The notes beneath the pieces were generated by a model. The model did no database searches and was not told the origin of the DNA. It saw only the letters and a program-made list of their open reading frames with translations. Positions 27,144-64,000 of a stretch of 64,000 nt of DNA are shown piece after piece. Numbering within the stretch: position 1 is the first letter of the stretch; each line of letters starts with the position of its first letter. A program made the position numbers and the translations under genes. This DNA comes from an uncultured delta proteobacterium (GTDB taxonomy: Bacteria > Myxococcota_A > Polyangia > Polyangiales > Polyangiaceae): contig CAVXQJ010000016.1 of the NCBI GenBank assembly GCA_963763745.1, positions 449,029 through 513,028 of the forward strand, in the 5' to 3' direction.

Positions 27144-28205
27144 ATGCGTGTTTCGCTCGGCGTCGTGTTCTCGGGCGCGCTCTGTCTGATTGCGCAGAGC
27201 GCAACGGCGCAGATCACGTTCAGCCTCGACAAATCCCGTAGCGCCGCGGCGGATGGCGCACGCGCGAAAGCCGTCGCCGGCGATTGCAAAGGCGCGCTCG
27301 ATTTGTTCGACGAAGCGCTTCGACACTCGATCGATCCGACGCTCTACCGCGATCGCGGCGCGTGTCACGAGAAGCTCGGCAACGTGTATCCCGCGATCGA
27401 CGACTATCGCGCATACGTCTCGCAAGCGCCCACCGCGGGCGACGCGGACAAAATCCGCGAGCGCATCGAATCGCTCATCAAGACGGCGTCGCAAGACATG
27501 GCGCCGAGCCTCGGTCATGGCGGCGACTTCGAGTCCGAGATGCGCGGCGGCATGGTGGACGGCTCGACACCCGGCTCGACGACGAGCAGCACGACCAAAA
27601 AAGACGACGACTCGAAAGACACGCAGACCAAACCGGAAGACCCGAACAAGCCGCTGAAGACGGTCGAGTACGAAGAGGGCCGCGACAAACAAGCGGAGAG
27701 CGGCCCGCTGCGGAAGGGCAAAGGTCTCGTGCTCGGCGTCTTCTTGTGGCCGCGCTACGTCATCAACGACTACTCGTTCCAGTTCGGACAAGGCATCGCC
27801 GTGCGCGTCGGTTACTCGGTGAGCTCGTCGAGCACGCTCGCGATCGAGATCGGCTACATGAACCAGCTATCGACAGGCAGCGCATCGACCACCGACGGCT
27901 TCACGGGCACGTTCAACTACGAGTACCGCATCCCGCTCGATCGATGGGCCGACAACCAGCTCATCGTCGGCGCGGGCGCCGGCTTCGAAGACCTCAAGCG
28001 CAACGATCTCCAGCTCCAATACGCGAGCTTCGTGGGCCGCGGCCGCTTCGGTTACCGCCACGTCTTCGGCCCGTCGCTCGCGCTGGATGTCGCTGCGGAC
28101 GGCGGGCTCATGATCACGCTCCCAATTGACCCGCCGCCGGGCGTGGAGACGGCCAGCTTTGGGGGGTTCATTGGGGGGGTTGTGGCACTGAGTGTGGGGT
28201 TTTAG
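27144..28205 (+). CDS. secreted protein with N-terminal TPR-like region and C-terminal outer-membrane beta-barrel-like domain (ends ...ALSVGF)
   Basis: Signal peptide MRVSLGVVFSGALCLIAQSATAQ. Alternating-hydrophobic beta-strand pattern in the last ~200 aa and a terminal Phe typical of BAM substrates. Adjacent to, and convergent with, the Wzc-like gene. Confidence 0.5.
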   Translation: MRVSLGVVFSGALCLIAQSATAQITFSLDKSRSAAADGARAKAVAGDCKGALDLFDEALRHSIDPTLYRDRGACHEKLGNVYPAIDDYRAYVSQAPTAGDADKIRERIESLIKTASQDMAPSLGHGGDFESEMRGGMVDGSTPGSTTSSTTKKDDDSKDTQTKPEDPNKPLKTVEYEEGRDKQAESGPLRKGKGLVLGVFLWPRYVINDYSFQFGQGIAVRVGYSVSSSSTLAIEIGYMNQLSTGSASTTDGFTGTFNYEYRIPLDRWADNQLIVGAGAGFEDLKRNDLQLQYASFVGRGRFGYRHVFGPSLALDVAADGGLMITLPIDPPPGVETASFGGFIGGVVALSVGF

Positions 28206-28306
28206 ACGAGCAACATCGACGAGAAGACTGTTGCCGGCTTCGGCGACGAATGGGAGCGCTTCGATCAGCGCGCCGTCGATCCGGAGTTCAAGAGTTATTT
28301 CGACAA

Positions 28307-30588
28307 TCAGTTGGGCGGTGAAGCGCTCTCGCTCGGCTCGCCGTCATCATCGACGCCATGGGGTCGATACCCTTCGCTCCGATAGTAGTAATACTGTTGT
28401 AGTAGTAGCTATAGCTGCTCTTGCGTGAGGTCGACCGCGTTGAGCACCGCGCCGACGACGCGCGCGTCGACGTCGCGGAGAGCGCGCAGGCCTTGGCGCG
28501 CGAGGTGGTGGCTCGTCTTGAACGCGCGGACGACGAAGAGCGTAGTGTCGGCGAGCGTCGAGACGATCGCCGAGTCGGTCACGGCCGCGAGCGGCGGGCT
28601 GTCGATGACCACGCGATCGAAGTGCTCGAGCAGCTCGCGCAGGAACTTCTTGAAGCGCTCCGATTGGAGCAAGTCGGCGGGATTTGGCGGCGGCGGGCCT
28701 GCGGGGATGCGACACAGATTCGGAATCGCGTCGCCATCTGGTCCCGTCGAGCGCGGCTTCGCGACATCGCCGATTGATGCGTCGCCGACGAGGACCGCCG
28801 TGACGCCGGCGTCGCCCGAGCGCCCGAAGATGCGGTGAAGCCGCGGGCGTCGAAGATCGCAGTCGATGATGCACGCGCGTTGTCCCGCTCTGCGCCATCG
28901 CGATCGCGACGCTGCATGCGACCGTCGTCTTGCCCTTCCGAGGGCGCCGAGCTCGTCACGAGGAGCGTGCGGTGCGGCTGTCCGGGTTCATGAAATGGAG
29001 GTTCGTGCGGAAGCTGCGTGCAGCCTCGGCGACGCCGCTGAGCGGACGGTCGTGGACGTAGAGTGCCGGATCGCCGCTTGCGGCAGCGGCGCTCGACGTC
29101 GGCGCTTCTCCTTTTCTTGCCGCCGTACCGCCGTACGCAGGCGCGTCCTCGTCGAGCGAGGGAAGCATGCCGAGGAACGTGAGGTTGAGCCGCGTCTCGA
29201 CGTCCTCGGGCGTCTTCATCGAGCTGTCGATCTGCTCGCGCAAGACGGCCAAGCGCGATGCCGAGCGACGAGTCCGACGAGCGAGCCGATGCCGAGGTTG
29301 ATCAGCGTGTTCGGGCGGATCGGGCGCGCGCGGCTCGGTCGGCTCGTCGACGACGTCGACGTTGTTGACCTTCATGCGCCGCGCGAGGTCGGCTTCTTTC
29401 TGGCGCTCGAGGAGCGTGTTGTACATCTTCTCGTTCTGTACGCGTTGACGATCGAGGCGGTGGTACTCGAGCTCTTTCAGGTTGAGATCGACCGCGCGCT
29501 TGCTGCGCTTCTTCGTAGAGCGAGCTGTCGCCGGCTCTCTTGGTGCTTGATGACTGCGAGATCATGCTCGACGGCGCCCTGGATGTTGCGCACTTCGTCG
29601 ACGAGCGCGCGCTTCGCCTGCGTGATGCGCTCGTCGGCGGCCTTCACGAGCGGGTGGTTCTCGCCCTTGCCGCTCGCGAGAAGCTCCTGACGGTCCTTCG
29701 TTGGCGGCGAGATATTGCGTTCGAAGCGACTGGAGGAAACCGCTCGTGAGGAGCTCGGACGCCGGAAGCACGTCGACGTTGTCGATCGTCACCTTCGCGA
29801 GCTCGGCCTCGCGCGCCTCGAGCTCTTTGCGCTTCGTCCGCGTGTGCGTCAGCGCGTCGTCGTACGTCTGCATCTCGAGACGAATCATCTTGCTGACTTC
29901 TTCGACGGTGCTCGACGGGAGCTCGTTCTTCTCTTTGAACTCGTGGAGCGCGTTCTCGCTCGCCTCGAGCTCGGTGTTGTAGTGGTCGACTTGGCCGCCG
30001 AGCCAGAGCGCTGCGTCGGAGCTCTCGTCGACGCCCTTCTCGAGGTTGTGGTCGACGTACGCGTGCGCGACGGCGTGCGGAGCTGGGCGGCGAGCGCCGG
30101 GTCGGTGTCTTCGACGCGAACGTAGAAGAGGCGGCTGTTCTTGACCGGCTCGACCGTGATCTCCGCGCGCAGCGCGCGACCGCGTTTTCGTTCGCGAGCT
30201 TGGCCCGGCGCGACGCCACCGTTGAAGCGCGGATTGGCCTGAAGCCCCATGCTCGCGCACGACCTTCGTGAGCACCGTGTCGCTCGTCACGATCGTGAAC
30301 TGCGTCTGGTACATCTCCTGGCTGTCCAGGTAGAACATCCAGCCCGTCGTCGGGTCTTGCTGGTTGCCGATGGGGCGAACGGGGTTCGGATCGAACTCCA
30401 GCATCGACGACGCTTGGTAGATGCGCGGTCGCGATTTCGACCAAAGCAGCGCAACGCCGCTCACGAACAGCACCATCGCGACGACCATAGGCCCAATGCT
30501 TGCGGACTTGGCCAAGAAGCGCCTGAATGCTGAGGCCGCGACCGTCGTCTTTCGACCTTTGGGCGGTGGTCTCGGGTGGGCTTGCCAT
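28307..30588 (-). pseudogene. Wzc-like polysaccharide co-polymerase / BY-family tyrosine autokinase, broken by at least 8 frameshifts plus an in-frame TAG before the Tyr-rich tail
   Basis: All expected pieces are present but lie in different frames. They are: N-terminal TM plus Wzz domain (IGPMVVAMVLFVSGVALLW..IYQASSMLEFDP; LQANPRFNGG...VEPVKNSRLFYVRV), a second TM (NTLINLGIGSLVGLV), Walker A (LLVTSSAPSEG / KTTVACSVAIAMAQSG), IIDCDLRRPRLHRIFG, the Walker B region VVIDSPPLAAVTDSAIV, and a Tyr cluster (QQYYYYRSEGY) encoded after TAG 28409-11. Confidence 0.8.
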
Positions 30589-30731
30589 GGGCGATGAAGG
30601 ATGACGTCACTACCTCAAGATGAGGCGGCGTGCCAGTTCGATGCGTGGGACCTGCGGCGGATTCAAGCGTGAAAATACGAAAAATCTCGATGGTTTTCCA
30701 GCATGTGACGAGGGTAAAACGCGCGGATTCC

Positions 30732-32628
30732 GTGTGTGGCATTGCTGGCGTCTTTGGTCTGAGTCGCGTGAGCCTGACGCGACGGATTTCGCGCGGGCGA
30801 TGTGCTTGCGCATCCGTCATCGCGGTCCAGATGGGCAGGGGACCACGTTCGCTGCACGACGTTGCGCTCGGAATGGTCCGCCTCGCGATCGTCGACGTCG
30901 AGCACGGCAAGCAACCGATGCTCAACGATGACGGAGCAGTCGCGCTCGTCTTCAACGGCGAGATTTACAATGCGCCGGCGTTACGACGTGAGCTCCAGGA
31001 TGCGGGCGTTCGATTTCACACGCGAAGCGACACGGAAGTCATTTTGCGTCTCTACGAGCGTGATCCGCACGACGTCGAAGCGGCATCTCGCGGGCATGTG
31101 GGCGTTCTGCGTTCACGATCGACGTCGGCGCAGACTCGTCTTGAGTCGAGATCGCTTCGGCATCAAACCGCTTTACTTCGTCGACCGCGGAGCGCGCACT
31201 CGCGTTCGGATCGGAGCTTGGTGCTTTCGAGCCGCTTCGCACGACTACCAAGTTCGCGCCGGCGTTCGCGATCGATCACGGGGCCGCTCACGCGATGCTC
31301 GCGTGGTCGTACATCCCCAACGAAGACACGATCTTCGAAGGCGTCAAGCGTCGTCGCTCCGAGCACGCGCCTCGAAGTCGATCTCGAGACGGGCAGCGCA
31401 GACGACGACGACGTCACTACGTCGTTCGACCGTCCGACGAAGCCTCGCGCGTGAGAGCCTTCCACGACGCGTGCGCGCTGATCGAGCCGCTCCTGCGCCG
31501 ATCGGTACGCGAGCACCTCGAGAGCGACGTGCCCATCGCCGCTTTCTTGAGTGGAGGAATCGATTCTTCGCTGATTCTCGCGCTGGCTGCCGAAGAGTCG
31601 CACGCAAACCGATTCGTGCATTCTGCATTGGTTTCCGCGAGCCGCGTTTCGACGAGTCGCCATTCGCGCGCCGCGTCGCGGAAAAACTCGGCGTGGATCT
31701 GCACGTTGAAGTCTTCGACGAAGCATCCGCTGCAGCGTCTCTTGACGATGCGCTCGCCGCATACGACGAGCCGTTCGGTGATTCGTCGAGCCTCGCAACG
31801 TTCATGCTGTCGCGCGTCGTCGCGACGAACGCACAAGGTCGCGCTCGGCGGCGACGGTGGCGACGAGGTGTTCGCCGGGTACCACAAACATCAAATCGTT
31901 CGCATTCGTCAGGCGCTCGGGCGCGTCGCCCAAGCTGCGCGATGGTATGCGCGGGTCGTTGCTCGCGCACTGCCTGCTCGCACGGATCGCTCGAGCGCGT
32001 CTCGCCGAGGCGATGCGAGTCGTTCGACGCGTCGCGCGCGGGCTCGCAAGGGCGACGACTGCTGCTTACTGCGCGCTCACCCAGGTCGCGTCGCTCGACA
32101 AGGTCGCTCCGCTCGTCGTGAGCCCGGCGGCCCCGGCCCGATTCGTGGAGCCCATCCTTCGCACGTTTGCCGAAGCAGGAGGGAGCCGAGCTGCAACGAA
32201 CGCTCGTATGCGATCTCGCGAACGTGCTCCCGAACGACATGCTCACGAAAGTCGATCGCGCGAGCATGGCGTGCGGGCTCGAGGCTCGCGTGCCGATGCT
32301 CGATCATCGCGTCGTCGAAGCCGGGCTTGGATTGCCTGCGAAGTTCACCATCGCCGGTTCCGGTAAGCGTGTGTTGCGCGAGCTGTATCGGCGCCGCTTC
32401 GGAGAGGAGCTCGCGAATCGGAAAAAAACCGGATTCAGCGTGCCGGTCGAAGCTTGGATGCGCGGACCGCTCGCATCGAAGTGTGCGGATATGATGCACG
32501 GGCACTCGGACTTGTTGCATATGTCTCGCGAGCTATGGAGCGAGTGGCTTGCGCGAGATCCACAAGCGTTATGGCACGCGTTTGCGCTCCGCTCTTGGGA
32601 AGTGGCGCGCGCTGATGGAGTGCGCTGA
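30732..32628 (+). pseudogene. asparagine synthetase (glutamine-hydrolysing) family amidotransferase paralog 1, heavily frameshifted (at least 8 shifts)
   Basis: The pieces MCGIAGVFGL (GTG start, Cys2 nucleophile), REPDATDFARAMCLRIRHRGPDGQG, LAIVDVEHGKQPMLNDDGAVALVFNGEIYN, LAGMWAFCVHDRRRRRLVLSRDRFGIKPLYF, AAFLSGGIDSS, VALGGDGGDEVFAGY and the C-terminal ...MACGLEARVPMLDHRVVE... are scattered over three frames. Confidence 0.75.
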
Positions 32629-35133
32629 ATGGACGCGACGACGAGACGCGTCTGGGGAACATGGATATTCGCGCTAGCGGTCATTGGGGCTCCGCTCGCG
32701 ATTGGTGCGCTCGACCGAAGAGTGATGTGCGTCATGGCTCTTGTTATCGTCGTCGGTACAGCGCTCGTCCTCACCGCGTCGGAGCCTTATGGGCCCCGTC
32801 GGAGCGCGTCGATGCTCGTCGCGCTGATGGCGAGCCTGCTAGGATTCACGGCGCTACAAACGATTCCGATTCCTGCGGGCGTCGCTAGTCGGTTGAGCCC
32901 ACATGCCGCCGACATTTGGGCACGGTGCCTGCGGCCGCTTGGGGAAGCCGGACCTCGATGGCATCCATTGACCGTCGACCCACCTGCGACGCACCTCGAG
33001 GTTCTTCGATGGGCGACGTACCTCGTCGCGCTGCTCGGCGCACTCGCTATAGCGCGGACTCGCGAAGGAGCGAGGTTCTTGGTGCGCGTGCTCGTCGTCG
33101 GCGGAGTGTTGATCGCCGTTGCTTCCGTGATGCACGCCGCTCTCGGGCTCGACAAGGTCTACGGAGTCATCCGTCCGAAAACGCAAGTTGGGTGGATCGC
33201 GCCGCTCCTCAACAGCAATCACGCTGGAGGCTACGTCAACATTGCGTTGATGCTCATGGCGTCTGCCGTCATCTCGAAGGCGCCCGTCATACCGCGTATG
33301 CTCGCCATCGTCGGGTCGGTGGCCCTCGTTGCGTTCGAGCTGTGGAACGCGTCGCGCGGCGCGGCGGGGACGATGGTGCTCGGCCTGCTCGCGCTCGTAA
33401 TCCTGCATCGTCGCCACGGGCGCGTCGCGCCCGCGCACGGCGCCGTTCTTCCCGCGCTGTTGATACTCGGCGGCGTCGGAATGCTGGTGCTTGGCGCGTT
33501 CGAGAGCTCCGCGCGGGGTATCGCGGACACGAGCCTGACGAAGTTGAAGATCGTCGGCCGAGCCATCACGACGATGGTTCCCGCATATCCGTTTTTCGGT
33601 GTGGGACGTGGCGCGTTCGAATCATCATTTCCGGAGTTCATGAACGCGCGAAACGAGGGGTTCGTAGTCTTCACGCACCCGGAGAACCTCGTGGCGCAGT
33701 GGTTGTGCGAGTGGGGAGTCGTCGTGACGCTCGTCGCCGTGGGCGTGCTCGCAGTCGCGCTGCGTTCGCGAAACGCGCTCGCGCGTGGCGCAATTGCGAT
33801 TGGCGCTTGGGTGGCGCTCGTCGTCGTCGCGCTTCAGAACCTCGTGGATTTCAGCTCCGAGACTCCGGGCGTGATGCTCGCGCTCGTTGTGTGTGCGGCG
33901 ATCGTGACGTCCGGGAGTGGGCATCGCAGAAACGCTGATCGAGCGGACTCCTTCGCAACGCACCCGAATGCGGTCGCGGTGGTCTCCGCGATGGCGGTCG
34001 GACTCGCGTGTGCGTGGGTGTGCATCGAACGTGCGGAGGTTCTCGTCGACGCAAAACCGCACGTGCGCGACGCACTCTTCGACGCACGGTCGTCGCGCGA
34101 GGAGCGCACGATGCTCGAACGCAACTCGATGCTCGCTCATCCCGCTGAGCCGTACTTCCCGTTGCTTGGTGCGTTGCGCGCCGTCGCAGACAAGCAAGAC
34201 GTCCTTCCTTGGATCGAGCGCACGCTTGAGCGCGCGCCTATCTATGCGCCGGCGCATCTCGTGTTTGCGCGGTGGCTGCGTTCCCGATCTCCGTCGCACG
34301 CGCGGGTCGAATATCGCATCGCGACCGAAGAACTCATGGGTCCGCCAGCAAGTGAACTCTTGCCGCTCGTGGGATCGTTCGACGATGCACTCGAGGCGGT
34401 GCCCATCGACGCGACCGCTGCCGATACGCTAGACGGGTTAGCGAGTCTGCTCGAAAAAACTCACCCAGCAACGCGCGCTCTGATCGACGCAGAAATCGAG
34501 CGCCGCACACCGGGGCGATTGTCGGTCACCGCCCGCGCCGCGAACGACGCCTATGACGACGCGGTCGCACCCGATGTTTCGCCGTGGTGCAACGGCGACA
34601 GTTGTGCCCGGGATGCGCTTGCCCGCGCGGCGGACCTGGAACGTCGTGCGCCGCAATCGAGTATTGGATACGCCCTGACAATGAAACTGCTCGCGCTGCG
34701 CGGTGACGTCCGTGGCGCTCTAGCGCACATGCACGACGCATGCACCTTGCTCCGCGATCGGAGCGCGTGTTTGGTCGAAGTCGCGACGCTCGCAACCACT
34801 TCAGGCAGTGCCGAAGCTACGGAGGACATCGATGCGCTTGCGCGTGAAGGCTGCCCATGGAGCGAAAGCTGCGCGCAGAATCTCTTGTCGGCAGTGGCGC
34901 TTGAGCAACAACGGCACAACAAAAATCGAGCGCTCGTGTTTCTTCGGCGCGCCGCGGCGATCGACCCCGATCGCGCCGATTTGCAGGAGAGCGTTGCAGT
35001 ACAAGCGGCCGCCGCTGGCCTCCATGGAGAAGCGGCTACCGCGTACGAACGATTATCCCACCTGCATCCGACAGACCCGCGGTATTCAAAGCTTGCAGAA
35101 GGTGAACGTTTGCTCTCGCGCAGCAGCAACTAG
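32629..35133 (+). CDS. O-antigen ligase/Wzy-like polymerase family membrane protein with long C-terminal TPR-like soluble domain
   Basis: ~10-12 TM helices with the FTHPENLVAQWLCEWGVVV motif typical of the O-antigen ligase (Wzy_C) family. ~350-aa C-terminal helical repeat region. Intact, 834 aa. Confidence 0.7.
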   Translation: MDATTRRVWGTWIFALAVIGAPLAIGALDRRVMCVMALVIVVGTALVLTASEPYGPRRSASMLVALMASLLGFTALQTIPIPAGVASRLSPHAADIWARCLRPLGEAGPRWHPLTVDPPATHLEVLRWATYLVALLGALAIARTREGARFLVRVLVVGGVLIAVASVMHAALGLDKVYGVIRPKTQVGWIAPLLNSNHAGGYVNIALMLMASAVISKAPVIPRMLAIVGSVALVAFELWNASRGAAGTMVLGLLALVILHRRHGRVAPAHGAVLPALLILGGVGMLVLGAFESSARGIADTSLTKLKIVGRAITTMVPAYPFFGVGRGAFESSFPEFMNARNEGFVVFTHPENLVAQWLCEWGVVVTLVAVGVLAVALRSRNALARGAIAIGAWVALVVVALQNLVDFSSETPGVMLALVVCAAIVTSGSGHRRNADRADSFATHPNAVAVVSAMAVGLACAWVCIERAEVLVDAKPHVRDALFDARSSREERTMLERNSMLAHPAEPYFPLLGALRAVADKQDVLPWIERTLERAPIYAPAHLVFARWLRSRSPSHARVEYRIATEELMGPPASELLPLVGSFDDALEAVPIDATAADTLDGLASLLEKTHPATRALIDAEIERRTPGRLSVTARAANDAYDDAVAPDVSPWCNGDSCARDALARAADLERRAPQSSIGYALTMKLLALRGDVRGALAHMHDACTLLRDRSACLVEVATLATTSGSAEATEDIDALAREGCPWSESCAQNLLSAVALEQQRHNKNRALVFLRRAAAIDPDRADLQESVAVQAAAAGLHGEAATAYERLSHLHPTDPRYSKLAEGERLLSRSSN

Positions 35134-35234
35134 CTTAGTCTTAGCTAGCGCTCAGCGTGAAGTTTGACGGATCGGTCCTCACCGAGGAGTAGTCGAGGTC
35201 TTCGCCCATTTCGTCGCACTCTAATCATCTAGTG

Positions 35235-40066: not shown

Positions 40067-40149
40067 GAATCCCACGGCGATGATATCATGCGCTATGACC
40101 CTATGGTCACGACACGTGCGCCCAACGTGAAATACCGCGCAACCTGCTG

Positions 40150-55769: not shown

Positions 55770-56999
55770 TCACGCGATTGCGCGCAACAGCGTGGCGTAG
55801 CGTTCGACGCCAGCTTGCAGACCGAAATGCGGAGCGGTGATATCGCGCGCGCGCGCGATGGTTTCGGCGTCCGGCGCTGTATCGACAACACGCTTGGCTG
55901 CCATCCGAACGCAGGAGTCGTCGATGGAATCGAGGACGAAACCAGAGCCCGCCCGGCGTACCCACTTCATCATCTCCACGTTGCAACCGTGTACAATTGG
56001 CCTTACGCCTGCGGCAAAGAATTCTGCGAGCTTCGTAGGCATCGAACCGCGTTTCGCGGCGAGGTCCGGCAAGAGCAGGATACCCCAGTCAATCCAATGA
56101 ACCCATTGGGGCATCTCATCGTGTCGGGCGCTTGCGACTGTGAAGCGATCCGGACTCATGCCCGTGTGAGACAGCGCATCAACGTAGGCTTCGCGCTGTT
56201 GCGTCAGCACGAGTAGATGCGCGGTGTCGCTCGCTTCGCAAGCGAAGCCAGCCAACCGAAGCGCGGAATCGGTTGCATAGGACCGATTGAGAGACCCGAC
56301 AATCGCGATGACGTTCTTGTCTCGAAGGCGTCGCTGAATGTCCAGCGGAACGACCGTGCTGCTACTGGGCTTGGCGGGTCGCGACGACGAAATCCCAAAC
56401 TCATGATAGTCCGCGCAGGTAGGAACCACAATAACGCGCGTTGCGTCCCTTCGCCCGAAGGCACCGTCCACGACCTCGCGTGCGTGAAGTGCTGTGAGCG
56501 TCACGACCGCCTTCGCGTCCCGGTACAGGTGGCGTTCGACGAACTTGCCCGCCGCATACGACGACGGTGTCGAGAACCACTCGGGACGCTCTTCAATCCA
56601 GCAGCCGCGCGCATCGAAGAGATACGGAATGTCCGTTAAGCGTTTGGCCGCTTCGGCGACAAGAGCGCTCTGATACCCGCGCGCATGAACGAGGGCGATG
56701 CGCGAGCGTCGTACGATTCGAAGCACGGATGCGCTCATGCGCGCGAAGGCCTCCGCCGATCGAGCTGCCGAGCCGTTGAGGTCCACTCCAATTGCAGTCC
56801 ATCCCACTCCGAACCGAGACAGCGTGCTCCGTACGTGTTCCACGTTCGCGCGATCTTCGATGTCGCGCGTGCGTTCGACCGACAGCAGATGATAGGGGAA
56901 ACCGTGCCTCGCCAAGGCGACGATCACACGCACGACTTGCGAAAAGCCTAACGGTTGAAGCACACCGTCGAACGACACGTAGAGCAGCGACGACGTCAT
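55770..56999 (-). CDS. glycosyltransferase family 4 (group 1)
   Basis: Start is M5 of the ORF (MTSSLLYVSFDGVLQPLGFSQVVRV...). C-terminal ...MPTKLAEFFAAGVRPIVHGCN... GT-B. Confidence 0.65.
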   Translation of the reverse strand: MTSSLLYVSFDGVLQPLGFSQVVRVIVALARHGFPYHLLSVERTRDIEDRANVEHVRSTLSRFGVGWTAIGVDLNGSAARSAEAFARMSASVLRIVRRSRIALVHARGYQSALVAEAAKRLTDIPYLFDARGCWIEERPEWFSTPSSYAAGKFVERHLYRDAKAVVTLTALHAREVVDGAFGRRDATRVIVVPTCADYHEFGISSSRPAKPSSSTVVPLDIQRRLRDKNVIAIVGSLNRSYATDSALRLAGFACEASDTAHLLVLTQQREAYVDALSHTGMSPDRFTVASARHDEMPQWVHWIDWGILLLPDLAAKRGSMPTKLAEFFAAGVRPIVHGCNVEMMKWVRRAGSGFVLDSIDDSCVRMAAKRVVDTAPDAETIARARDITAPHFGLQAGVERYATLLRAIA

Positions 57000-57078
57000 T
57001 CGCGTGACCACACGTACCGCGTCCGCGCATGTACAGCAAGTTGCTTCAGCGCGCGACCTGGGCTACGTGATTGCTGAG

Positions 57079-58964
57079 ATGTGCGGCATCTTGGGCTCCG
57101 TGTTCGACGCTCAATGCATGGACGTCGCCGGCGCGCTCAAGCGCCTACGACACCGTGGGCCCGACGCCGAGGGCGTCTTTCGCGACGAGGGCGTGGTGCT
57201 TGGGCACACGCGGCTTTCGATTCTCGACTTAAGTCCGCTCGGCGTGCAACCGATGCGGAGCGCCGACGGTCGAGCCGTCGTCGTCTTCAATGGTGAAATA
57301 TACAACCATCATGAGCTTCGTGCGGAACTCCAGAAGTGCGGCCGTTCGTTTCGCTCTCGCTCCGATACGGAGGTGATCGTCGAAGGGTATTGCGAATACG
57401 GTGTAGCGTTTTTCGAACGACTTGACGGGATGTTCGCCATCGCCTTGTTCGACCGCAAACAGCGCCGACTCGTTCTCGTGCGCGACCGAACTGGGAAGAA
57501 GCCGCTCTTCTACACCCGCTGCGGCGGCAACGTACGATTCGCCTCGGAGATACGTGCCCTGTTCGCGCTTGGCACTCCGTCGACACTCCGATTGGCGTCG
57601 TTGCCGCTGCTGCTGTCACTCGGGTATGTGCCGCCGCCCGCGACGTTGTACGAACACGTTGCGCAGCTCCCACCGGCCACGATCCTTGACATCACGGAGA
57701 ACGCGTCGCCCGAGGTTCGCACGTTTTGGAGGGCGCCGTTCAACGCGGAGCCGCTCGACGTCGGCGTAATCGAAGCAACGCGCGAGGTGCGGCGCCTCAC
57801 CGAGCAAGCGGTGCTGAGACGCCTTGAAGCGGACGTGCCGCTCGGTGCATTTCTGTCGGGCGGCATCGATTCGTCGGTCGTCGTCGGGTTGATGGCGCGC
57901 ATGTCGACGAAGCGTGTGAAGACATTCTCCATCGGATTTTCGCAAGACGCCCGTTTCGACGAAACGCGTTACGCGCGAATCGCCTCCGATGCATTCGACA
58001 CCGATCACACTGAATTTACCCTCGAGCCAAGCTCGATCGACTTGCTCGATCGTCTCGTCGAGGCTCACGACGGTCCGTTCGGGGATTCGTCTGCAGTCCC
58101 CACGAGCGTCGTATCGATGCTGACGCGCAAGCACGTGACGGTAGCGCTTACGGGCGACGGTGGAGACGAGTTGTTCGCTGGATACAACATCTTTCTCCGC
58201 GTGACGGCCGCCGAAGCCGTGCCCCAACCGCTTCGAACGCTCGCACGGGCGCTAACAACACACCTTCCGTTAGACGGTCAAGCCTTCAATCGGTTGACAC
58301 GCGCCCTACACGTGGCGGCGCTATCGCTTCCCGAACGAATGCTGCACTGGCAGTCGTATTTCACGAACGACCTTGGCGCGCTCTTGACGCGCGAGCTGCG
58401 CACGAGCGTCGATTTGGATGCCGCTAAGAGTTGGATTCGTCTGCTCGGCGCGCGCACGGGGGCCGCCTCTCCACTAACACGCGCGTTGCAGATCAACTTC
58501 GATTCGTACCTACCATTTGACTTGCTGGTGAAGGCCGACCGTGCATCGATGCTTCATTCGCTAGAGCTCCGATCCCCGTTCCTCGACACCGAGCTCATCG
58601 AATACGCCTCACGGCTGCCGGATCGCTTCCGCCGGCGTCACAGAGTCACCAAATGGATCTTGCGGCGCGCCTTCCGCGACATTGTTCCAGCGCCGATTCT
58701 TCACGCGGCAAGATGGGATTTGGCATGCCGCTCGCGACGTGGTTTCGAACGAGCCTTCGGGAGCTCGTCCGAGACACGCTATGCAGGTCGGCTCGCCTCG
58801 GGCAGTTCGTCGATCTGGCCTACGTCGACCGCTTGCTCGATGAGCACGACAGCGGCGTGCGCGATCACCATAATCCGATATGGCTTCTCTTGACGATGGA
58901 GCGCTGGCTGCATCTTCTCCCCACGTGGACGCGAATGACGAACGCACCAGAGGTATCAGTATGA
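57079..58964 (+). CDS. asparagine synthetase family amidotransferase paralog 3 (one frameshift ~58705, probably a G-run indel)
   Basis: MCGILGSVFD (Cys2), TRLSILDLSPLGVQPMRSADGRAVVVFNGEIYNHHEL, AFLSGGIDSSVVV, ALTGDGGDELFAGY, LELRSPFLD. After ...APILHA the frame shifts to ...KMGFGMPLATWFRTSLRELVRDTL...*. Confidence 0.8.
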
Positions 58965-59986
58965 ATGCCTCGCCGCCGCTTGTGTCCGTGCTCGTTCCGA
59001 CCATCGGTCGCCCCGAGTTCTTCGACGACCTGCTGCGTTCGGTACGCCAACAGACGTATGCCAACATCGAAGTCGTAGTTCTCGACAATGCGAGCGGCGA
59101 CGACGCGGCGCGCGCATTCGCCGAATGGGCGCGCACCGACTCGCGTGTACGCGTGCGCCGGCTGGAATCACGCGTCCCGGTCTTTCGCAACCTCAACCGT
59201 GGCATTGCGGAAGCGAAGGGTAAATACGTCGTCTTCTTTCATGACGACGATGTTTATGCAGCGGCGCTTCTTGCGCGTGCGGTCGACGCGCTCGAGGCCT
59301 ATCCACGCGCTCGATTCTTCGCCAGCAACTACGACTTCGTCGACGAACGCGGCGTTCTGACGGAAAAGCGGCGATGGATTCGCCGCGACGCATGCATTCC
59401 CGGACGCCAATTCGTCGAAATGATGCTCCACCGCGGTCGCGGAATCGTGGTGACGCCGGGAGTCGTGTTCCGCCGTTCCACACTCGACGACGGCTTCGAC
59501 GAACGGCTATCGCTCCACTACGGTGATTACATAATACTGATGCGAATGGCCGAGCGCGGCGACGTGTACTTAGGCACCGACGCCCTCGTCAGCATTCGCC
59601 GACACGCTGCTCAGCAAAGTCTAGAGATGTCATTTTCCGCAGGCGATACGGCAGCGGACGAACTTGTTCCTCGATTATTGCGATGGATATCTGAGCCGGC
59701 ACCCCAACGATGCACGATTCATTCGCTCGATGAGGCGGCGCGTGATTTTGCTTCACCGTATCGGGCTCGTATGGGGATGGGCGACGGCGACCAACGACGC
59801 CGAGGCGTCGGCCTGCACGCGCGAACTCCGGGAAGCCGTCCGCGGTGTGGACCCGGCGCTGCGCGTTATCGAAGGTTTGAACGGCAGACGATGGGTTGGG
59901 CGCTTCGCGGGCCGCGCGAAGAAGCTAGGAGCACTTCTCGGTATGTAGCCACTCAAGCACGTCGCGCAGGCCTGATGTGCGATTGA
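58961..59986 (+). CDS. glycosyltransferase family 2
   Basis: VSVLVPTIGRPEFFDDLLRSVRQQTYANIEVVVLDNASGDD...FFHDDDV (DxD). ATGA overlap with asnB3. The last ~100 aa are low-complexity. An alternative C-terminus (ORF 59664..59948) suggests a possible frameshift near 59660. Confidence 0.7.
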   Translation: MNASPPLVSVLVPTIGRPEFFDDLLRSVRQQTYANIEVVVLDNASGDDAARAFAEWARTDSRVRVRRLESRVPVFRNLNRGIAEAKGKYVVFFHDDDVYAAALLARAVDALEAYPRARFFASNYDFVDERGVLTEKRRWIRRDACIPGRQFVEMMLHRGRGIVVTPGVVFRRSTLDDGFDERLSLHYGDYIILMRMAERGDVYLGTDALVSIRRHAAQQSLEMSFSAGDTAADELVPRLLRWISEPAPQRCTIHSLDEAARDFASPYRARMGMGDGDQRRRGVGLHARTPGSRPRCGPGAARYRRFERQTMGWALRGPREEARSTSRYVATQARRAGLMCD

Positions 59987-60833
59987 AATGTGGGCGAAAG
60001 CCCAGCTCCTCTCGCAGCCGCGCGACGTCGGCGACGATGTAGTCGGGGTCATCCGCGCGACGTGGCAGCGCTCCGAGGATGACCTTGCCACCGAGCAATC
60101 GTTCGAGCGTGCGTGCGATGTCGGCGACCACGACGGGCTCTCCGGAGGCTACATTGACGGGGCCGCTCACATGCGAGTCAATGATCGCGACCAACGCCCT
60201 GGCCGCATCGCCGACATGCATGAAATCGCGAACCTGGTGTCCGTGGCTGCAAAGGGCCTCTTCTCCGCGCAACATTGCACTTGCGATAGAAGTTACAAAG
60301 CGTCGCCGGTCTTCGTGCGGCCCGTAGAGAAAGAAGACACGTGCATGTGCCCAGGATAGGCCCGATTGAGTTGCGTAAGCCGCGACGACCCGCCTGAGTG
60401 CGTCTTTGCACACACCATAAGCGGTTGATGGTGCGATGCGCGATGTTGCTTCGCGAAGCGCTTCGCTTCCTTCCCACGCATACTCAGCGCAACTGCCAAC
60501 TGTAACGACGCGCTGCCCCCCCCCTTCACGGAACGCGCGAACGAGCTCGATCGATGCGGCAGCCCAACGCAGATTCTCAGGCGAATGCCAGAAGAGCCCA
60601 TGTTCGCTATACCAAGCGATGTGTAATAAGGATTCTGGCTTTGCGGCTGCCAGGAGCTTCGACCGTCCGTCCGCGGACAAAAGGTCGGCACGGTGCCAAA
60701 TGACGTGCTCAATATTGAGTGGTGGGATGGCCTCAACATGAGATGCATGCACTTCATACCCGGCCGCGAGCAGTTCGCTGACCGCATGACGGCCGATGAA
60801 TCCGCCCGCGCCAGTAACAAGGACCGATCGCAT
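59925..60833 (-). CDS. NAD(P)-dependent epimerase/dehydratase family protein (short-chain dehydrogenase fold; candidate NDP-4-keto sugar reductase/epimerase)
   Basis: MRSVLVTGAGGFIGRHAVSELLAAGYEV...YGVCK (YxxxK). 302 aa. Confidence 0.75.
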   Translation of the reverse strand: MRSVLVTGAGGFIGRHAVSELLAAGYEVHASHVEAIPPLNIEHVIWHRADLLSADGRSKLLAAAKPESLLHIAWYSEHGLFWHSPENLRWAAASIELVRAFREGGGQRVVTVGSCAEYAWEGSEALREATSRIAPSTAYGVCKDALRRVVAAYATQSGLSWAHARVFFLYGPHEDRRRFVTSIASAMLRGEEALCSHGHQVRDFMHVGDAARALVAIIDSHVSGPVNVASGEPVVVADIARTLERLLGGKVILGALPRRADDPDYIVADVARLREELGFRPHFNRTSGLRDVLEWLHTEKCS

Positions 60834-60836
60834 GGC

Positions 60837-62060
60837 TCAAACGATTCGAACGTCGGGTATCGGCACGATGAACTTGCCGCCGGCATCACGGTACGCCGCT
60901 TGTTGACGCAGAATTTCGTCCGCGAAGTTCCATGTAAGAAGTAGGCAGTAGTCCGGCATCGCCTCTGCAAGGTGCGCTGGGCCGAGAATCGGAATGTGTG
61001 AGCCTGGCATGTAATGATTTTGTTTGTGGGGACTGCGGTCAACCACGAAGTCGATTGTGTCGGCGCCGATACCCATGTACGTTAGTAGGGTGGTTCCCTT
61101 AGCCGCAGCACCATAAGCCGCGACACGCTTGCCTTGGCGTTTTAGATCGGCAAGCAGTGTCTTGAGAGTGTCGCGCAGTGTTTGGACTCGGCGCGCGAAA
61201 GTGCGGTAGAAAGCGAGATGGCCCATCCCCATGTGCGCTTCTTCTTCGAGAAGCCGTTTGACGTTCTCTCCGCGCTGAAAGCTTGATGCCGGAGACACAA
61301 AAATGCGAAGCGAGCCACCGTGCATCGGTATGTGTTCCACGTCCCGCAGCACCAAACCGCTACGGGCAAACAGTTTATCAAGCGCAGTCGCGGAAAAGTA
61401 ACAAAGATGTTCATGGTAGATCGTATCGAATTCGCATCGCTCAACGAGATCGCGCACATAGGGCGCTTCGATGATCGCAACACCAGTCGGCTTCAACAGC
61501 GTAGCAATGCCCTCAACCACCCCGTTGAGATCTGCAACGTGCGCGAGCACGTTGTTGGCATGAAGGACGTCGACACGTTTGCCATCGCGAGCAAGCTCAC
61601 TGGCTAACTCGGATCCGAAAAACTTCGCAAGCGTTGGAACGTTGCGTTCTTCGACGGCAACACGAGCAATATTGGTCGCGGGCTCGATGCCGAGTACTGG
61701 CACGCCGGCCTGGACATAATGTTGCAGCAGGTAGCCATCATTGCTCGCAATCTCGACAACAAACGAGTTGCGCGTAAGCTTTTCGGTTTCGATCATTCGC
61801 GTCGCGATGGTCTTCGCATGTGTGACCATCGTGTCGGAAAACGAGGAGAAATAGAGGTAGTCGGAGAAGAGCACGTCAGGCGGGACGGTCTCAGTGATCT
61901 GAACCAGCGTGCAGCAAGCGCAGAAGGCTAGGTCCAGTGGATACGTTTGCTCCGGACGCGACAATTCCTGCTCCGTGAGCAGTGAGTTCGCGAGCGGCGT
62001 CCTGCCAAGTGAGAGGATGAGGTCAAGATCAGTGGCCTGGCAGAGACGACAACGAGTCAT
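60837..62060 (-). CDS. NDP-hexose C-methyltransferase (TylC3-like family, N-terminal Zn-ribbon plus class I MTase)
   Basis: MTRCRLCQ...CACCTLVQ Cys4 ribbon; VVEIASNDGYLL; the C-terminal domain pattern matches sugar 3-C-methyltransferases. Confidence 0.7.
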   Translation of the reverse strand: MTRCRLCQATDLDLILSLGRTPLANSLLTEQELSRPEQTYPLDLAFCACCTLVQITETVPPDVLFSDYLYFSSFSDTMVTHAKTIATRMIETEKLTRNSFVVEIASNDGYLLQHYVQAGVPVLGIEPATNIARVAVEERNVPTLAKFFGSELASELARDGKRVDVLHANNVLAHVADLNGVVEGIATLLKPTGVAIIEAPYVRDLVERCEFDTIYHEHLCYFSATALDKLFARSGLVLRDVEHIPMHGGSLRIFVSPASSFQRGENVKRLLEEEAHMGMGHLAFYRTFARRVQTLRDTLKTLLADLKRQGKRVAAYGAAAKGTTLLTYMGIGADTIDFVVDRSPHKQNHYMPGSHIPILGPAHLAEAMPDYCLLLTWNFADEILRQQAAYRDAGGKFIVPIPDVRIV

Positions 62061-62207
62061 GCGTGATTCTTCTACTTTCTGCACCAGCTGCGTGCAAGAG
62101 CGGGTGGACGCTACAAGCCGACAATGCTAGAGACGCTGCGGAATCAGGGGACATTCACTGAATCCGGAGCTCGGAAGAGCAACGAACACACTCGTGCGGG
62201 ACGAATC

Positions 62208-63290
62208 ATGGCGAGAACAAGTGACGTTATCATCGAGGACGCGCGGTGGATCGTGGATCGGATGGAAACCGCCATGAATCCGTTACGTGGCACGACGTTG
62301 TTGTTGACGGGCGCCGGCGGGTTCCTTTGTAGCTTTATCCTGGACGTGCTGGTGGAGTTCAACAGGCGTCGGGGATCACCTGTGCGCATTCTCGCGGTTG
62401 ACAATTTCCTGAGCGGTGTGCCCGATCGCGTTGCACACCACAAGGGGCTTGCCGACGTCGTTCTGCTCACACACGACATGAGTAAACCGCTTGACGCACC
62501 AGAACCGTATCAATGGGTCATTCATGGCGCAAGCATCGCATCCCCCACGTTCTATCGCCGCTTCCCTCTCGAAACGATCGACGTGAATGTGAATGGCACT
62601 TGGCACCTACTCGAGATGTGCCGCACTCACCCCGAGATACGCAGTCTGGTATTTCTTAGCACCAGTGAGATTTACGGTGATCCGACACCTGATGCGATTC
62701 CGACGCCCGAGACGTATCGCGGCTTTGTGTCGTGTACCGGACCGCGTGCTTGCTACGATGAATCGAAACGCCTGGGTGAGACGCTGTGCACGACATACCA
62801 TCGGCTTCATCACATACCGGTGAAGACGGTTCGGCCGTTCAACGTCTACGGACCTGGTCAGCGGCTCGACGACATGCGCATCATGCCGGATCTCATTCGC
62901 GCGGCGCTTAGGCGAATGCCGATTATTCTCCATAGCGACGGTCGCGCAACGAGAGCATTCTGCTACGTGCGTGATGCAGCTTCGGCGATGCTTCATATCT
63001 TGCTCTCTGAAGCAAACGGAGAAGCGTTTAATGTGGGGAACGACGAAGAAGAGATTCCAATGACCGAGGTCGCCAAGCGCGTCGTGGAAGTCGCGGGGCC
63101 TCCTGCGATTAGAATCGACCACAAGGTCAGCGACGATCCGCTCTACCTTTCTGACAACCCTCTGAGACGCTGTCCCGATCTTAGCAAGCTGCGCAAGTAC
63201 TTCCCAACATGGTCGCCGACCGTGACCCTCCGCGAGGGCATCGCGCGCACCCTGCGTTCCTATCCGGCTGAGCCGGGGGAGGTCTCGTGA
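62208..63290 (+). CDS. NAD-dependent epimerase/dehydratase, UDP-glucuronate decarboxylase (UXS/ArnA C-terminal domain)-like
   Basis: Start is M29 of the ORF. LLLTGAGGFLCSFILDVL (GxxGxxG), STSEIYG, YDESKR (YxxxK). Confidence 0.7.
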   Translation: MARTSDVIIEDARWIVDRMETAMNPLRGTTLLLTGAGGFLCSFILDVLVEFNRRRGSPVRILAVDNFLSGVPDRVAHHKGLADVVLLTHDMSKPLDAPEPYQWVIHGASIASPTFYRRFPLETIDVNVNGTWHLLEMCRTHPEIRSLVFLSTSEIYGDPTPDAIPTPETYRGFVSCTGPRACYDESKRLGETLCTTYHRLHHIPVKTVRPFNVYGPGQRLDDMRIMPDLIRAALRRMPIILHSDGRATRAFCYVRDAASAMLHILLSEANGEAFNVGNDEEEIPMTEVAKRVVEVAGPPAIRIDHKVSDDPLYLSDNPLRRCPDLSKLRKYFPTWSPTVTLREGIARTLRSYPAEPGEVS

Positions 63291-64000
63291 ACGTCACGAT
63301 CTTCGGTGCCGGCTATGTCGGTCTTGTCACTGGCACGTGCTTGGCCGCGATTGGCCATGACGTAACTTGTGTTGATGTCGTACGCGAGCGCGTCGACGCT
63401 ATCAACGCTGGCAAAACGCCAATCTACGAAAGCGGTCTCGACAAGCTCCTCGCCGACACGCTATCCACCGGGCGTTTTCGGGCAACCGTCGACGCCGAAA
63501 ACGCGCTTCGGAACAGCGACCTGTCCATGATTGCTGTCGGAACCCCACCGCGCGGCGATCAGATTGACCTATCATACGTTGAACAAGTCGCCCGGACGAT
63601 CGGCCGCCATCTGCGCCACCGCGACGGGCGCCATACGGTGGTCGTCAAGAGCACCGTAGTGCCTGGCACGACGGCCGGACTTGTGCGTGAAAAATTGGAA
63701 CACGAAGCAAACAAGAAGGCCGGCAAGGACTTTGGGCTTGCGATGAACCCTGAGTTTCTCAGGGAAGGATGCGCCGTAGACGATTTCATGAATCCGGATC
63801 GCGTCGTCATTGGCCAGTTTGATGGCAGATCGGGCGATGCGGTTGCGGAACTGTATGCGCGCTTCGACTGTCCAAAACCTCGCGTGACGCTCGTCGATGC
63901 CGAGTTCATCAAGTACGCATCTAACACTCTTCTAGCCACGCTCGTTTCCTTCAGTAATGAACTCTATAGGCTTTGCGAAAACACCACCGGCGCAGACGGC
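63287..64000 (+). CDS. ugd: UDP-glucose 6-dehydrogenase, 3' end beyond window
   Basis: GTG overlaps the upstream stop (GTGA). VNVTIFGAGYVGLVTGTCLAAIGHDVTCVDV...GKTPIYESGL...MIAVGTP...AMNPEFLREG canonical UDP-Glc/GDP-Man dehydrogenase N-terminus. Confidence 0.85.
   Translation, partial: MNVTIFGAGYVGLVTGTCLAAIGHDVTCVDVVRERVDAINAGKTPIYESGLDKLLADTLSTGRFRATVDAENALRNSDLSMIAVGTPPRGDQIDLSYVEQVARTIGRHLRHRDGRHTVVVKSTVVPGTTAGLVREKLEHEANKKAGKDFGLAMNPEFLREGCAVDDFMNPDRVVIGQFDGRSGDAVAELYARFDCPKPRVTLVDAEFIKYASNTLLATLVSFSNELYRLCENTTGADG

Follow-up and report, generated by a model that had tools for sequence, protein, structure and literature searches.

A probable Wzx/Wzy-dependent polysaccharide locus of mosaic structure in an uncultured Polyangiaceae bacterium

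What kind of polymer is specified by a glycan locus of more than 36 kb in a member of the Polyangiaceae, and how exceptional is its gene content? We address this question for a 64,000-nucleotide stretch of contig CAVXQJ010000016.1 (assembly GCA_963763745.1, positions 449,029 to 513,028 of the forward strand), hereafter called the window. A first-pass annotation, made from the nucleotide sequence, had described the part of the window from position 27144 onwards as a Wzx/Wzy-dependent glycan locus with an unusually dense set of tailoring genes. From the families and folds of the gene products, the order of the genes, their synteny with other loci and their co-occurrence, we conclude that the window probably carries a mosaic-built locus of the Wzx/Wzy-dependent type, directing the synthesis of a capsular polysaccharide or exopolysaccharide (EPS).

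The stretch 27144–64000 is tiled by glycan genes with no room left, in agreement with the extent first claimed, and searches of Pfam, NCBIfam, PDB sequences and protein folds back nearly every gene that had been listed (Table 1). The assignment to the Wzx/Wzy type is borne out by the assembly machinery. The Wzy_C domain of the polymerase candidate has 12 predicted transmembrane segments, scores 40.8 bits (cut-off 31.7), and is followed by a long C-terminal helical domain resembling tetratricopeptide repeats (TPR). The gene is free of frameshifts, and its product is 61% identical to protein Wzy836 of the metagenomic locus L086 and 42% identical to Wzy of locus L012. It is of the Wzy type, which by family predicts a polymerase or a ligase. 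The Wzx-like protein has no direct match in Pfam or NCBIfam, and phmmer and profile searches of PDB sequences gave no match either. Its 58 homologs share 29–53% identity with it; about half of them carry PF01943 and a flippase name, and those at 38–53% identity have PF01943 and are named flippase or polysaccharide transporter (PST). The Wzc-like protein combines a polysaccharide co-polymerase of class 2a (PCP-2a) with a bacterial tyrosine kinase (BY-kinase), and its N-terminal part is 78% identical over 81 aligned residues to the 750-residue L086 ortholog (PF13807 GNVR, AAA_31), the remainder of which falls beyond the L086 sequence covered. The initiating enzyme is a WecA-like polyprenyl-phosphate N-acetylhexosamine-1-phosphate transferase (PNPT), identical in 268 of 485 positions (55%) to a 525-residue homolog from locus L039 once one frame is corrected. 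An open reading frame at 28347–28898 (−) was rejected because it reads the Wzc kinase domain in the wrong frame.

Two Wzy-like proteins had been claimed, and only one is present. The second candidate, encoded at 40150–41394, matches no Pfam family and lacks Wzy_C, and its AlphaFold2 (AF2) model, with a predicted local distance difference test score (pLDDT) of 88, matches the fold of GT-C glycosyltransferases. The top PDB fold matches of the model are STT3, ArnT, EmbA/B, AglB, Pmt4, ALG6/12 and PglB. A reading of the protein as Wzy/WaaL-type was discarded: WaaL reaches a template-modeling (TM) score of only 0.25 against the model. Most of the 115 homologs are unnamed metagenome proteins, those with names come mostly from Polyangiaceae or Labilithrix, and one distant homolog is called 'RgtA/B/C/D-like'. 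The residues G56-D58...Y62-E63 in the first loop are invariant in the family. In every locus seen, the GT-C-fold gene adjoins a GT4 gene (40150–41394 in the window, 10001–11230 in L086).

The locus is a mosaic of a lineage-conserved core and a variable sugar region of lower GC content, which drops from ~0.65 to 0.56–0.61 past ~34 kb. The earlier guess of a myxobacterial source was correct. Ffh is 88% identical to its counterparts in two Polyangiaceae metagenome-assembled genomes (MAGs), and its best 80 genomic matches are all (80/80) from Myxococcota, mostly Polyangiaceae or Labilithrix. In 70 of the 80 loci from related Polyangiaceae, Ffh has the CBM9 protein beside it; this protein is a conserved left-hand neighbor of the locus, possibly a member of the system. 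Orthologs of the TPR/β-barrel protein occupy the same position in loci L001 and L002 (59–60% identity), and several relatives, not all, have the Wzy-TPR protein and Wzc downstream of Ffh, CBM9 and the TPR/β-barrel protein. Across Polyangiaceae genomes (L001–L080), Ffh, CBM9, the TPR/β-barrel protein, a ~860-residue Wzy-TPR protein and Wzc are conserved together, corresponding to 21546–35133 of the window. Because the synteny of Ffh, CBM9 and the TPR/β-barrel gene is kept in relatives, the conserved unit probably begins at or before 25516. Therefore, the core polysaccharide system appears to be anchored beside the signal recognition particle (SRP) gene, with variable sugar genes attached to it. 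The core would comprise the CBM9 and TPR/β-barrel proteins, the Wzc PCP-2a/BY-kinase, AsnB-1, the Wzy-TPR protein, GT4a and the GT-C protein.

Three metagenomic loci share parts of the mosaic. Locus L086 (ENA ERZ26871208 contig_45913, GC 0.59) preserves the order Wzc(−), AsnB(+), Wzy(+), ..., GT4(−), GT-C-like(+) of the window, and the shared proteins are 61–73% identical over their full length after frame correction, GT4a at 66%. Wzc and AsnB of L086 are called as full-length genes. Past the shared core, L086 has its own methyltransferases, Wzx, AsnB and an MBOAT gene. Locus L084 (JGI Ga0172380_10000038), on an unrelated metagenome contig, shares the variable part: the order GNAT, WbqC, dehydratase, DegT and Wzx is identical, with identities of 52, 64, 81 (SDR342, full length), 71 and 48%, and there are counterparts of AsnB-2 (AsnB617, 71%), GT1b (GT1_404, 41%) and GT4a (54%). 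GT1b is also 39% identical to GT1 of locus L088. Locus L090 (Logan SRR21229964_3290) shares AsnB, the carboxylase-fold protein described below, WbqC, DegT and the dehydratase at 44–54%. None of the three holds the full gene combination of the window. Their loads of AsnB, methyltransferase, radical S-adenosylmethionine (SAM), DegT, GNAT and short-chain dehydrogenase/reductase (SDR) genes are comparable to that of the window, which leaves the description of its tailoring set as unusually dense without support, and much of the supposedly unique toolkit is a recurrent cassette shared with other loci.

The RmlB/WbqC/DegT/GNAT cassette is present, as first annotated, at 50384–53761 (−). The DegT aminotransferase scores 327 bits for PseC and 309 bits for ArnB in NCBIfam, both under cut-off. 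WbqC has no solved relative among PDB sequences, and a literature search on 'WbqC' found no functional study. An N-acetylated amino-dideoxyhexose in the polymer is plausible from this gene set. On the far side of Wzx from the cassette lies a 492-residue membrane protein, previously called HTTM-like. This label was right at the level of fold, where the matches are structures of the vitamin K-dependent γ-glutamyl carboxylase GGCX; a Pfam match was not obtained. The protein matches nothing in Pfam, PF05090 (HTTM) included, at E up to 10; only three of its 47 relatives match HTTM, weakly (best E 1.5e-5), and a profile of the family found no GGCX chain among PDB sequences. The AF2 model built from the 47-sequence alignment has a pLDDT of 94.7, and its top 16 Foldseek matches in the PDB are all GGCX (E 8e-8 to 3e-2, probability 0.99–1.0, TM 0.34–0.49 and 0.42–0.49 for the first 15, ~470 aligned columns at 15–17% identity); the first match to another fold has an E of 0.34. 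Residue K165, within an AGxYK motif, is invariant in the family, which comprises 312 clusters in an exhaustive search.

Relatives of the carboxylase-fold protein sit in sugar loci (L088, L090–L092). A metagenome scan retained 80 loci (L093–L172), of which 56 were independent and had at least 3 kb of flanking sequence. In these 56 loci, the neighbors of the carboxylase-fold gene are AsnB (38), GNAT (29), the dehydratase (24), WbqC (21), DegT (21) and Wzx (1), and neither Wzy nor WecA-like, C-methyltransferase or radical SAM genes were found. The 80 Ffh-anchored loci, used as a control, are without AsnB, WbqC and GNAT matches. The AsnB, GNAT, dehydratase, WbqC and DegT genes and the carboxylase-fold gene form a portable cassette. 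The model further allows the speculation that the carboxylase-fold protein is the hub of this horizontally spread cassette and performs a quinone-dependent, GGCX-like modification of the sugar, the lipid-linked unit or the polymer, although we consider this a long shot. To our knowledge, no quinone-dependent GGCX-like chemistry has been described in bacterial glycan biosynthesis, and a literature search on HTTM/GGCX-like proteins and bacterial polysaccharides found nothing relevant.

The right-hand part of the locus encodes C-methylation and uronic acid functions. The C-methyltransferase was rightly described as TylC3-like: it has a three-part organization (zinc-binding domain at the N-terminus, PF08421, E 1e-21; SAM methyltransferase domain, PF13489, E 4e-17; Methyltransf_14 domain at the C-terminus, PF08484, E 4e-61) and aligns along its full length, residues 7–414, with the solved 3-C-methyltransferases 5t64, 4rv9 and 3ndi (E 1e-83 to 1e-91). 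A 3-C-methyl sugar in the polymer is plausible on the strength of this homology. The adjacent SDR302 matches GalE and RmlB of NCBIfam weakly. There are only three SDR genes, encoding the RmlB-like enzyme, SDR302 as the C-methyltransferase partner and the UXS-like enzyme; therefore, the earlier tally, which implied a fourth, counted one of them twice. The predicted pair of Ugd and a UXS-like enzyme was recovered, Ugd by Pfam and NCBIfam (TIGR03026, 260 bits against a cut-off of 190) and the UXS-like enzyme by its PDB match to human UXS1; NCBIfam matches of the latter are weak and of mixed dehydratase type, and a scan of genome contigs with this protein gave no match.

The putative cobalamin-dependent methylase exceeds the Pfam cut-off for Radical_SAM (35.7 bits, cut-off 29.5), and its B12-binding domain scores 22.7 bits, under the cut-off of 32.1; most of its homologs have PF02310 listed in precomputed Pfam. 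Its best NCBIfam match is KedN5 (NF033712), at 193 bits against a cut-off of 700 and over profile positions 17–396 of 624, and by sequence the enzyme represents a subfamily related to KedN5 but distinct from it. The family is very large; its best 120 matches are 62–72% identical and ~680 residues long, and the named ones belong to Planctomycetota, Acidobacteriota and related groups. One Planctomycetota locus, L082, brings together a radical SAM enzyme of this family (68% identity), a 3-C-methyltransferase (43%), a pair of SDRs, a GT2 and an NTP-transferase. A small GT2 gene directly follows the radical SAM gene in loci L081, L082 and L083, and in L082 a Cys-rich secreted protein, unrelated to that of the window, precedes it. 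A literature search for cobalamin radical SAM enzymes and bacterial polysaccharides found nothing relevant. Both SAM-dependent methyltransferases of the first-pass annotation are supported by Methyltransf_11 matches (41391–42374 and 54842–55747); MT1 starts with an ATG that overlaps the upstream stop codon.

From these assignments we infer the substrates, the order of steps and the polymer, and with them the activity of genes that are frameshifted in the deposited sequence. The WecA-like PNPT would start the repeat unit on undecaprenyl phosphate, and four cytoplasmic glycosyltransferases would extend it with sugars from three routes. In the first, an RmlB-like dehydratase may form an NDP-4-keto-6-deoxyhexose, which is aminated by DegT and N-acetylated by GNAT, while WbqC, AsnB-2 and the carboxylase-fold protein could add a further, cassette-specific modification. 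In the second, the TylC3-like enzyme would add a methyl group at C-3 of a similar 4-keto intermediate, and the SDR encoded next to it would carry out the reduction, giving a 3-C-methyl-6-deoxyhexose. In the third, Ugd would provide UDP-glucuronate, which may be kept as a uronic acid and possibly amidated by an AsnB paralog, or alternatively decarboxylated to xylose by the UXS-like SDR. The two SAM methyltransferases and the B12 radical SAM enzyme may add O-, N- or C-linked methyl groups. Wzx would flip the completed unit, and Wzy would polymerize it under the control of Wzc. In the periplasm, the GT-C enzyme may attach a side sugar from a polyprenyl-phosphate donor, and the tailspike-like β-helix protein may trim the polymer. 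The outer-membrane exporter and the nucleotidyltransferase would be encoded elsewhere, as in Myxococcus.

Several observations weigh against this reading of the locus. The scores of AsnB, DegT, GNAT and the RmlB-like and radical SAM enzymes fall short of the curated cut-offs that NCBIfam sets for the specific families, so the substrate assignments are guesses. The fold matches of the GT-C protein have probabilities of 0.99–1.0 and TM scores of 0.42–0.49, but their E values of 6e-3 to 0.8 are modest. Neither an outer-membrane polysaccharide exporter (Wza/OPX) nor RmlA or another nucleotidyltransferase is encoded in the window, and Ugd is still open at its end. The absence of Wza and RmlA had been noted at first pass, and no Poly_export or NTP_transferase gene occurs among the genes tiling 25.5–64 kb. 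The missing Wza does not disqualify the locus, since wza is encoded at a distance in Myxococcus too: all three of its Wzx/Wzy pathways, which include a PCP-2A Wzc, are split over at least two loci, and for one wza the distance is 1 Mbp (PMC7310880). The earlier suggestion that Wza and RmlA are encoded outside the window fits these split pathways. The AsnB paralogs of glycan loci can yield acetamidino groups rather than uronamides. Finally, Wzc, the initiating transferase, the three AsnB proteins and the radical SAM enzyme, all correctly identified before, are not intact reading frames as sequenced, each AsnB being interrupted by one or more frameshifts. With six frameshifted genes, Wzc and the initiating transferase among them, a point that the first-pass annotation overlooked, the function of the locus cannot be assumed, and real breaks would leave the pathway dead or badly impaired.

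The best-scoring NCBIfam family of AsnB-2 and AsnB-3 is eps_aminotran_1 (TIGR03108; WbpS/WbqG), at 445 bits for AsnB-3 and 307 bits for the C-terminal part of AsnB-2, yet both are below the cut-off of 816.9; the general AsnB model TIGR01536 is passed, with 439 and 267.6 bits against 267.1. WbpS/WbqG-type AsnB enzymes form uronamides (PMC7468200). By this kinship, uronamides made by AsnB enzymes are plausible constituents of the polymer. Alternatively, the paralogs may convert an N-acetyl to an N-acetimidoyl group, or amidate a carboxyl group on the N-acyl substituent of an amino sugar, with no amidation of uronic acids; AsnB-2 in particular would then belong to the amino-sugar cassette. The AsnB homologs WbpG, PseA and LfnA form acetamidino groups and provide a precedent. 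Of the 56 loci, 38 have an AsnB-2-type gene in the company of the genes for the carboxylase-fold protein, WbqC, DegT, dehydratase and GNAT, and 11 loci show adjacency within 65 nucleotides. A relative of Ugd occurs in none of the 56 loci within the flanks covered. However, the closest NCBIfam family of AsnB-2 and AsnB-3 is of the uronamide type, Ugd is encoded in this locus, and in L088 Ugd adjoins the carboxylase-fold protein. We keep uronic acid amidation as a possibility in the proposed pathway and consider the alternative chemistry less likely than not.

A second alternative is that the locus is a decaying, non-functional remnant, that the frameshifts are real mutations and that the organism makes no polymer from it. 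The frameshifts were found by homology-guided, frameshift-aware alignment; plotting of GC content at third codon positions (GC3) is uninformative within a locus of 58–60% GC. About 26 frame changes are packed with sharp edges into the 4.3 kb of Wzc and AsnB-1 (28313–32622). The Wzc-like gene aligns with the intact 816-residue Wzc of L012 at 429 of 734 identical positions, with ~16 frame changes and no in-frame stop, and AsnB-1 with the intact AsnB621 of L086 at 454 of 618, with 10 frame corrections and no stop. Frame changes are absent from ~9 kb of upstream housekeeping genes and from ~13.6 kb of other locus genes, and none occurs in Wzy, GT4a, the GT-C gene, GT1b, Wzx, DegT, the dehydratase, WbqC, GNAT, the C-methyltransferase or the UXS-like gene. 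The interruption of six genes speaks for decay, as does the concentration of 26 events in one stretch whose edges fall at gene boundaries, next to clean Wzy (2.5 kb) and TPR/β-barrel genes, and the deposited protein set holds a truncated, 609-residue radical SAM product. Yet over the 734 and 618 corrected codons there is not a single in-frame stop, amino-acid divergence does not exceed that of intact neighbors (58–73% identity for corrected Wzc and AsnB-1, 61–66% for the neighbors), every event involves one or two nucleotides without larger deletions, and each of the four isolated events alters the length of a homopolymer, a T-run, as consensus errors of long reads typically do. The source is a 607-kb MAG contig, whose proteins occur in the public collection as singletons only, and the relatives come from nanopore-style assemblies, as judged from record names only. 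Because the corrected frames are free of stops and conserved at least as well as intact neighbors, we attribute the frameshifts mainly to sequence error and consider decay unlikely. The stretch 28313–32622 resembles a patch of low sequence quality in a MAG assembled from long reads, and the gene calls within it are unreliable.

A further alternative is that the polymer is the O-antigen of lipopolysaccharide (LPS) and not a capsule or EPS. As an O-antigen, the chain would be ligated to lipid A-core, either by a distal WaaL or by the protein with the Wzy_C domain. In favor of this reading, O-antigens typically start from a PNPT of the WecA type, O-antigen ligases fall within Wzy_C of Pfam, and it was in O-antigen clusters that cassettes of WbqC, DegT and AsnB first drew notice (Pfam description; WbpS/WbqG). 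Against this, the co-polymerase is a PCP-2a with a tyrosine kinase and a Tyr-rich tail, that is, of the capsule/EPS type represented by Myxococcus WzcB and not a Wzz, and the conserved neighbors are TPR/β-barrel and CBM9 proteins, which leaves an O-antigen quite doubtful. That the deoxysugar genes (dehydratase, DegT, 3-C-methyltransferase, B12 radical SAM and methyltransferases) serve to decorate a secondary metabolite is very improbable: the closest solved relatives of the C-methyltransferase are antibiotic-derived (TcaB9, mycarose, KijD1), NCBIfam places the radical SAM enzyme nearest to the KedN5 family of kedarcidin, and myxobacteria are rich in glycosylated natural products, but genes for Wzx, Wzy, Wzc, the PNPT and glycosyltransferases of polysaccharide type lie in between the sugar genes, the same cassette accompanies Wzx in L084 and L088, and we reject the reading because core biosynthetic genes are absent from the window, with no polyketide synthase, nonribosomal peptide synthetase or terpene genes within the 64 kb.

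Table 1 Genes of the window, in window coordinates, with the basis of their assignment and the state of their reading frames
Feature	Coordinates	Strand	Basis of assignment	Reading frame
Housekeeping genes Mdh, SucC, DapD, RadA, AlaS, Ffh	1–25.5 kb		GC ~65%	
Secreted CBM9-domain protein	25516..27105	+	Pfam CBM9_1, E 9e-15	
Signal-peptide protein with TPR region, small C-terminal outer-membrane β-barrel-like domain and final Phe	27144..28205	+	Pfam TPR_9, E 2e-10; OMP_b-brl weak, E 7e-3	
Wzc-like PCP-2a co-polymerase with fused BY-kinase	28313..30573	−	Walker A motif, Tyr-rich tail	~16 frame changes
AsnB-1, glutamine-dependent amidotransferase	30732..32622	+	GATase_7 and Asn_synthase fragments; N-terminal Cys kept	Fragments in different frames
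Wzy-like polymerase	32629..35133	+	Pfam Wzy_C, E 2.5e-10	Intact
Tailspike-like β-helix protein with phage tail-fiber-type N-terminal domain	35235..36992	−	PHROG	
WecA/WbpL-type PNPT, ~510 residues	37421..38960	+	Pfam Glycos_transf_4, E 4e-31	One frameshift, 38042 (T6 run)
GT4a glycosyltransferase	38933..40066	−	Glyco_trans_1_4, E 7e-34; Glyco_trans_4_2, E 3e-16	Intact
Membrane protein of predicted GT-C fold (ArnT/Emb/STT3-like)	40150..41394	+	AF2 model	
MT1, class I SAM-dependent methyltransferase	41391..42374	+	Methyltransf_11, E 1e-18	
Cobalamin-binding radical SAM enzyme, putative class B C-methyltransferase, ~680 residues	42406..44443	+		One frameshift, ~44153 (T-run); L082 homolog aligns in two frames
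GT1b, GT1/GT4-type glycosyltransferase	44444..45583	+	Pfam Glycos_transf_1, E 1e-10	
AsnB-2	45719..47574	+	GATase_7, E 4e-44; Asn_synthase, E 7e-96	Two frames; one frameshift, ~46176 (T-run)
492-residue membrane protein of predicted vitamin K-dependent γ-glutamyl carboxylase fold	47564..49042	+	HTTM-type and C-terminal domain	
Wzx flippase, PST family	49047..50387	−	Homologs	
DegT/PseC/ArnB-type sugar aminotransferase	50384..51517	−	Pfam DegT, E 7e-116	
RmlB-like NDP-hexose 4,6-dehydratase	51514..52542	−	TIGR01181, 333 bits, cut-off 365	
WbqC-family protein	52539..53228	−	Pfam WbqC, E 2e-75	
GNAT N-acetyltransferase, PseH-like	53225..53761	−	Acetyltransf_3, E 5e-18; PseH, 63 bits, cut-off 93	
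Cys-rich secreted protein, 299 residues	53935..54834	+	Signal-peptide-like N-terminus, many Cys	
MT2, divergent SAM-dependent methyltransferase	54842..55747	−	Methyltransf_11, E 4e-5, partial	
GT4c, GT4-type glycosyltransferase	55770..57011	−	Glyco_trans_4_4, E 3e-12; N-terminal domain only detected	
AsnB-3	57079..58964	+	Asn_synthase, E 2e-79, profile positions 1–283 only	One frameshift, ~58700 (T-run); C-terminus goes on in another frame
GT2-family glycosyltransferase	58961..59986	+	Pfam Glycos_transf_2, E 1e-23	
SDR302, extended SDR, putative 4-ketoreductase or epimerase partnering the C-methyltransferase	59925..60833	−	Epimerase, E 2e-39, full length	
NDP-hexose 3-C-methyltransferase (TylC3/TcaB9/KijD1-like)	60837..62084	−	Methyltransf_13 and Methyltransf_14	
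UXS-like SDR, putative UDP-glucuronate decarboxylase	62124..63290	+	Human UXS1 in PDB, E 1e-46	
Ugd, UDP-glucose 6-dehydrogenase	63287..64000	+	UDPG_MGDP_dh_N, E 2e-62	Cut by window end

Among the remaining genes, the β-helix protein and the Cys-rich secreted protein are both present as first listed. Residues 9–83 of the β-helix protein match PHROG tail fibers (E 1.8e-9); a PHROG tail spike match reaches E 6e-4, and the Pfam Beta_helix match is weak. By these similarities, the protein could be a domesticated glycan depolymerase or lyase, or a phage remnant. Its gene lies between those of Wzy and the initiating transferase, a position occupied in L086 by a PglF-like dehydratase gene. The Cys-rich protein matches nothing in Pfam, NCBIfam or PHROG. 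An open reading frame at 38975–40150 (+) is spurious, being antisense to GT4a, whose real gene is on the minus strand. The window contains no exosortase, as examined in a test for the XrtA/PEP-CTERM system, in which the stp2 glycosyltransferase model reached 118 bits against a cut-off of 409 and eps_aminotran_1 was likewise below its cut-off. Neither tRNA genes nor Rfam families at gathering threshold were found in the 64 kb, and none marks the borders of the locus. Upstream, two paralogous AAA_14/DUF4143 ATPase genes (17820–18956, +, and 24325–25548, −) flank the Ffh region, and an insertion sequence-type DDE transposase gene (12185–13009, +) precedes it. The paired ATPase genes and the transposase may be traces of local rearrangement.

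The locus is a fairly ordinary one, one more uncharacterized polysaccharide cluster among many in soil Myxococcota, and it illustrates how loci of this kind combine portable cassettes with a core conserved in the lineage. With 26 frame changes in 4.3 kb and additional homopolymer errors, gene calls in this stretch of the deposited contig are unreliable, which affects any automated reading of the cluster. Three recurrent glycan-associated families without a studied member occur in it, the GGCX-fold protein, the B12 radical SAM enzyme and the GT-C enzyme. The carboxylase-fold cassette is the first lead worth following, and the cross-phylum radical SAM family the second. If the speculative quinone-dependent role of the carboxylase-fold protein holds, this protein and the B12 radical SAM enzyme would be two undescribed classes of glycan-modifying enzymes.

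No near-identical characterized cluster was found, which is a weak test only, as MIBiG and the sequences of the Myxococcus EPS, biosurfactant polysaccharide (BPS) and major spore coat (MASC) loci were outside the comparison. The initiating enzymes of M. xanthus are of the WbaP type. The BPS system of M. xanthus (PMC7310880) shares with the window its phylum, Wzx, Wzy, the fusion of PCP-2A Wzc with a kinase, uronic acid chemistry and a distant exporter gene, and differs in that the window has WecA-type PNPT initiation. A tailoring set like that of the window, with its 3-C-methyltransferase, B12 radical SAM enzyme, three AsnB proteins, WbqC cassette, carboxylase-fold protein and GT-C enzyme, has not been described for BPS. 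The WbpS/WbqG loci of P. aeruginosa O6, E. coli O121 and P. gingivalis A-LPS (PMC7468200) have in common with it an AsnB gene beside wzx and a sugar aminotransferase, whereas the window has three AsnB paralogs under the family cut-off, another host and another assembly core. The carboxylase-fold protein shares its predicted whole-chain fold with GGCX/HTTM proteins (Foldseek probability 1.0), but differs from them in having no sequence-level match and in its context, which is sugar tailoring instead of protein carboxylation. In the phase I LPS of Coxiella burnetii, a TylCIII-type methyltransferase has been proposed to form virenose, a 3-C-methyl sugar, and a 3-C-methyltransferase, a 4,6-dehydratase and a reductase-type SDR are likewise combined in a glycan locus (PMC3539893). 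The antibiotic 3-C-methyl pathways (TylC3, TcaB9, MtmC) employ the same full-length type of NDP-4-keto-6-deoxyhexose 3-C-methyltransferase. Unlike Coxiella and the antibiotic pathways, the window adds a putative B12/radical SAM methylase. Each predicted sugar feature thus has a precedent, and the polymer would therefore be new in detail, not in kind.

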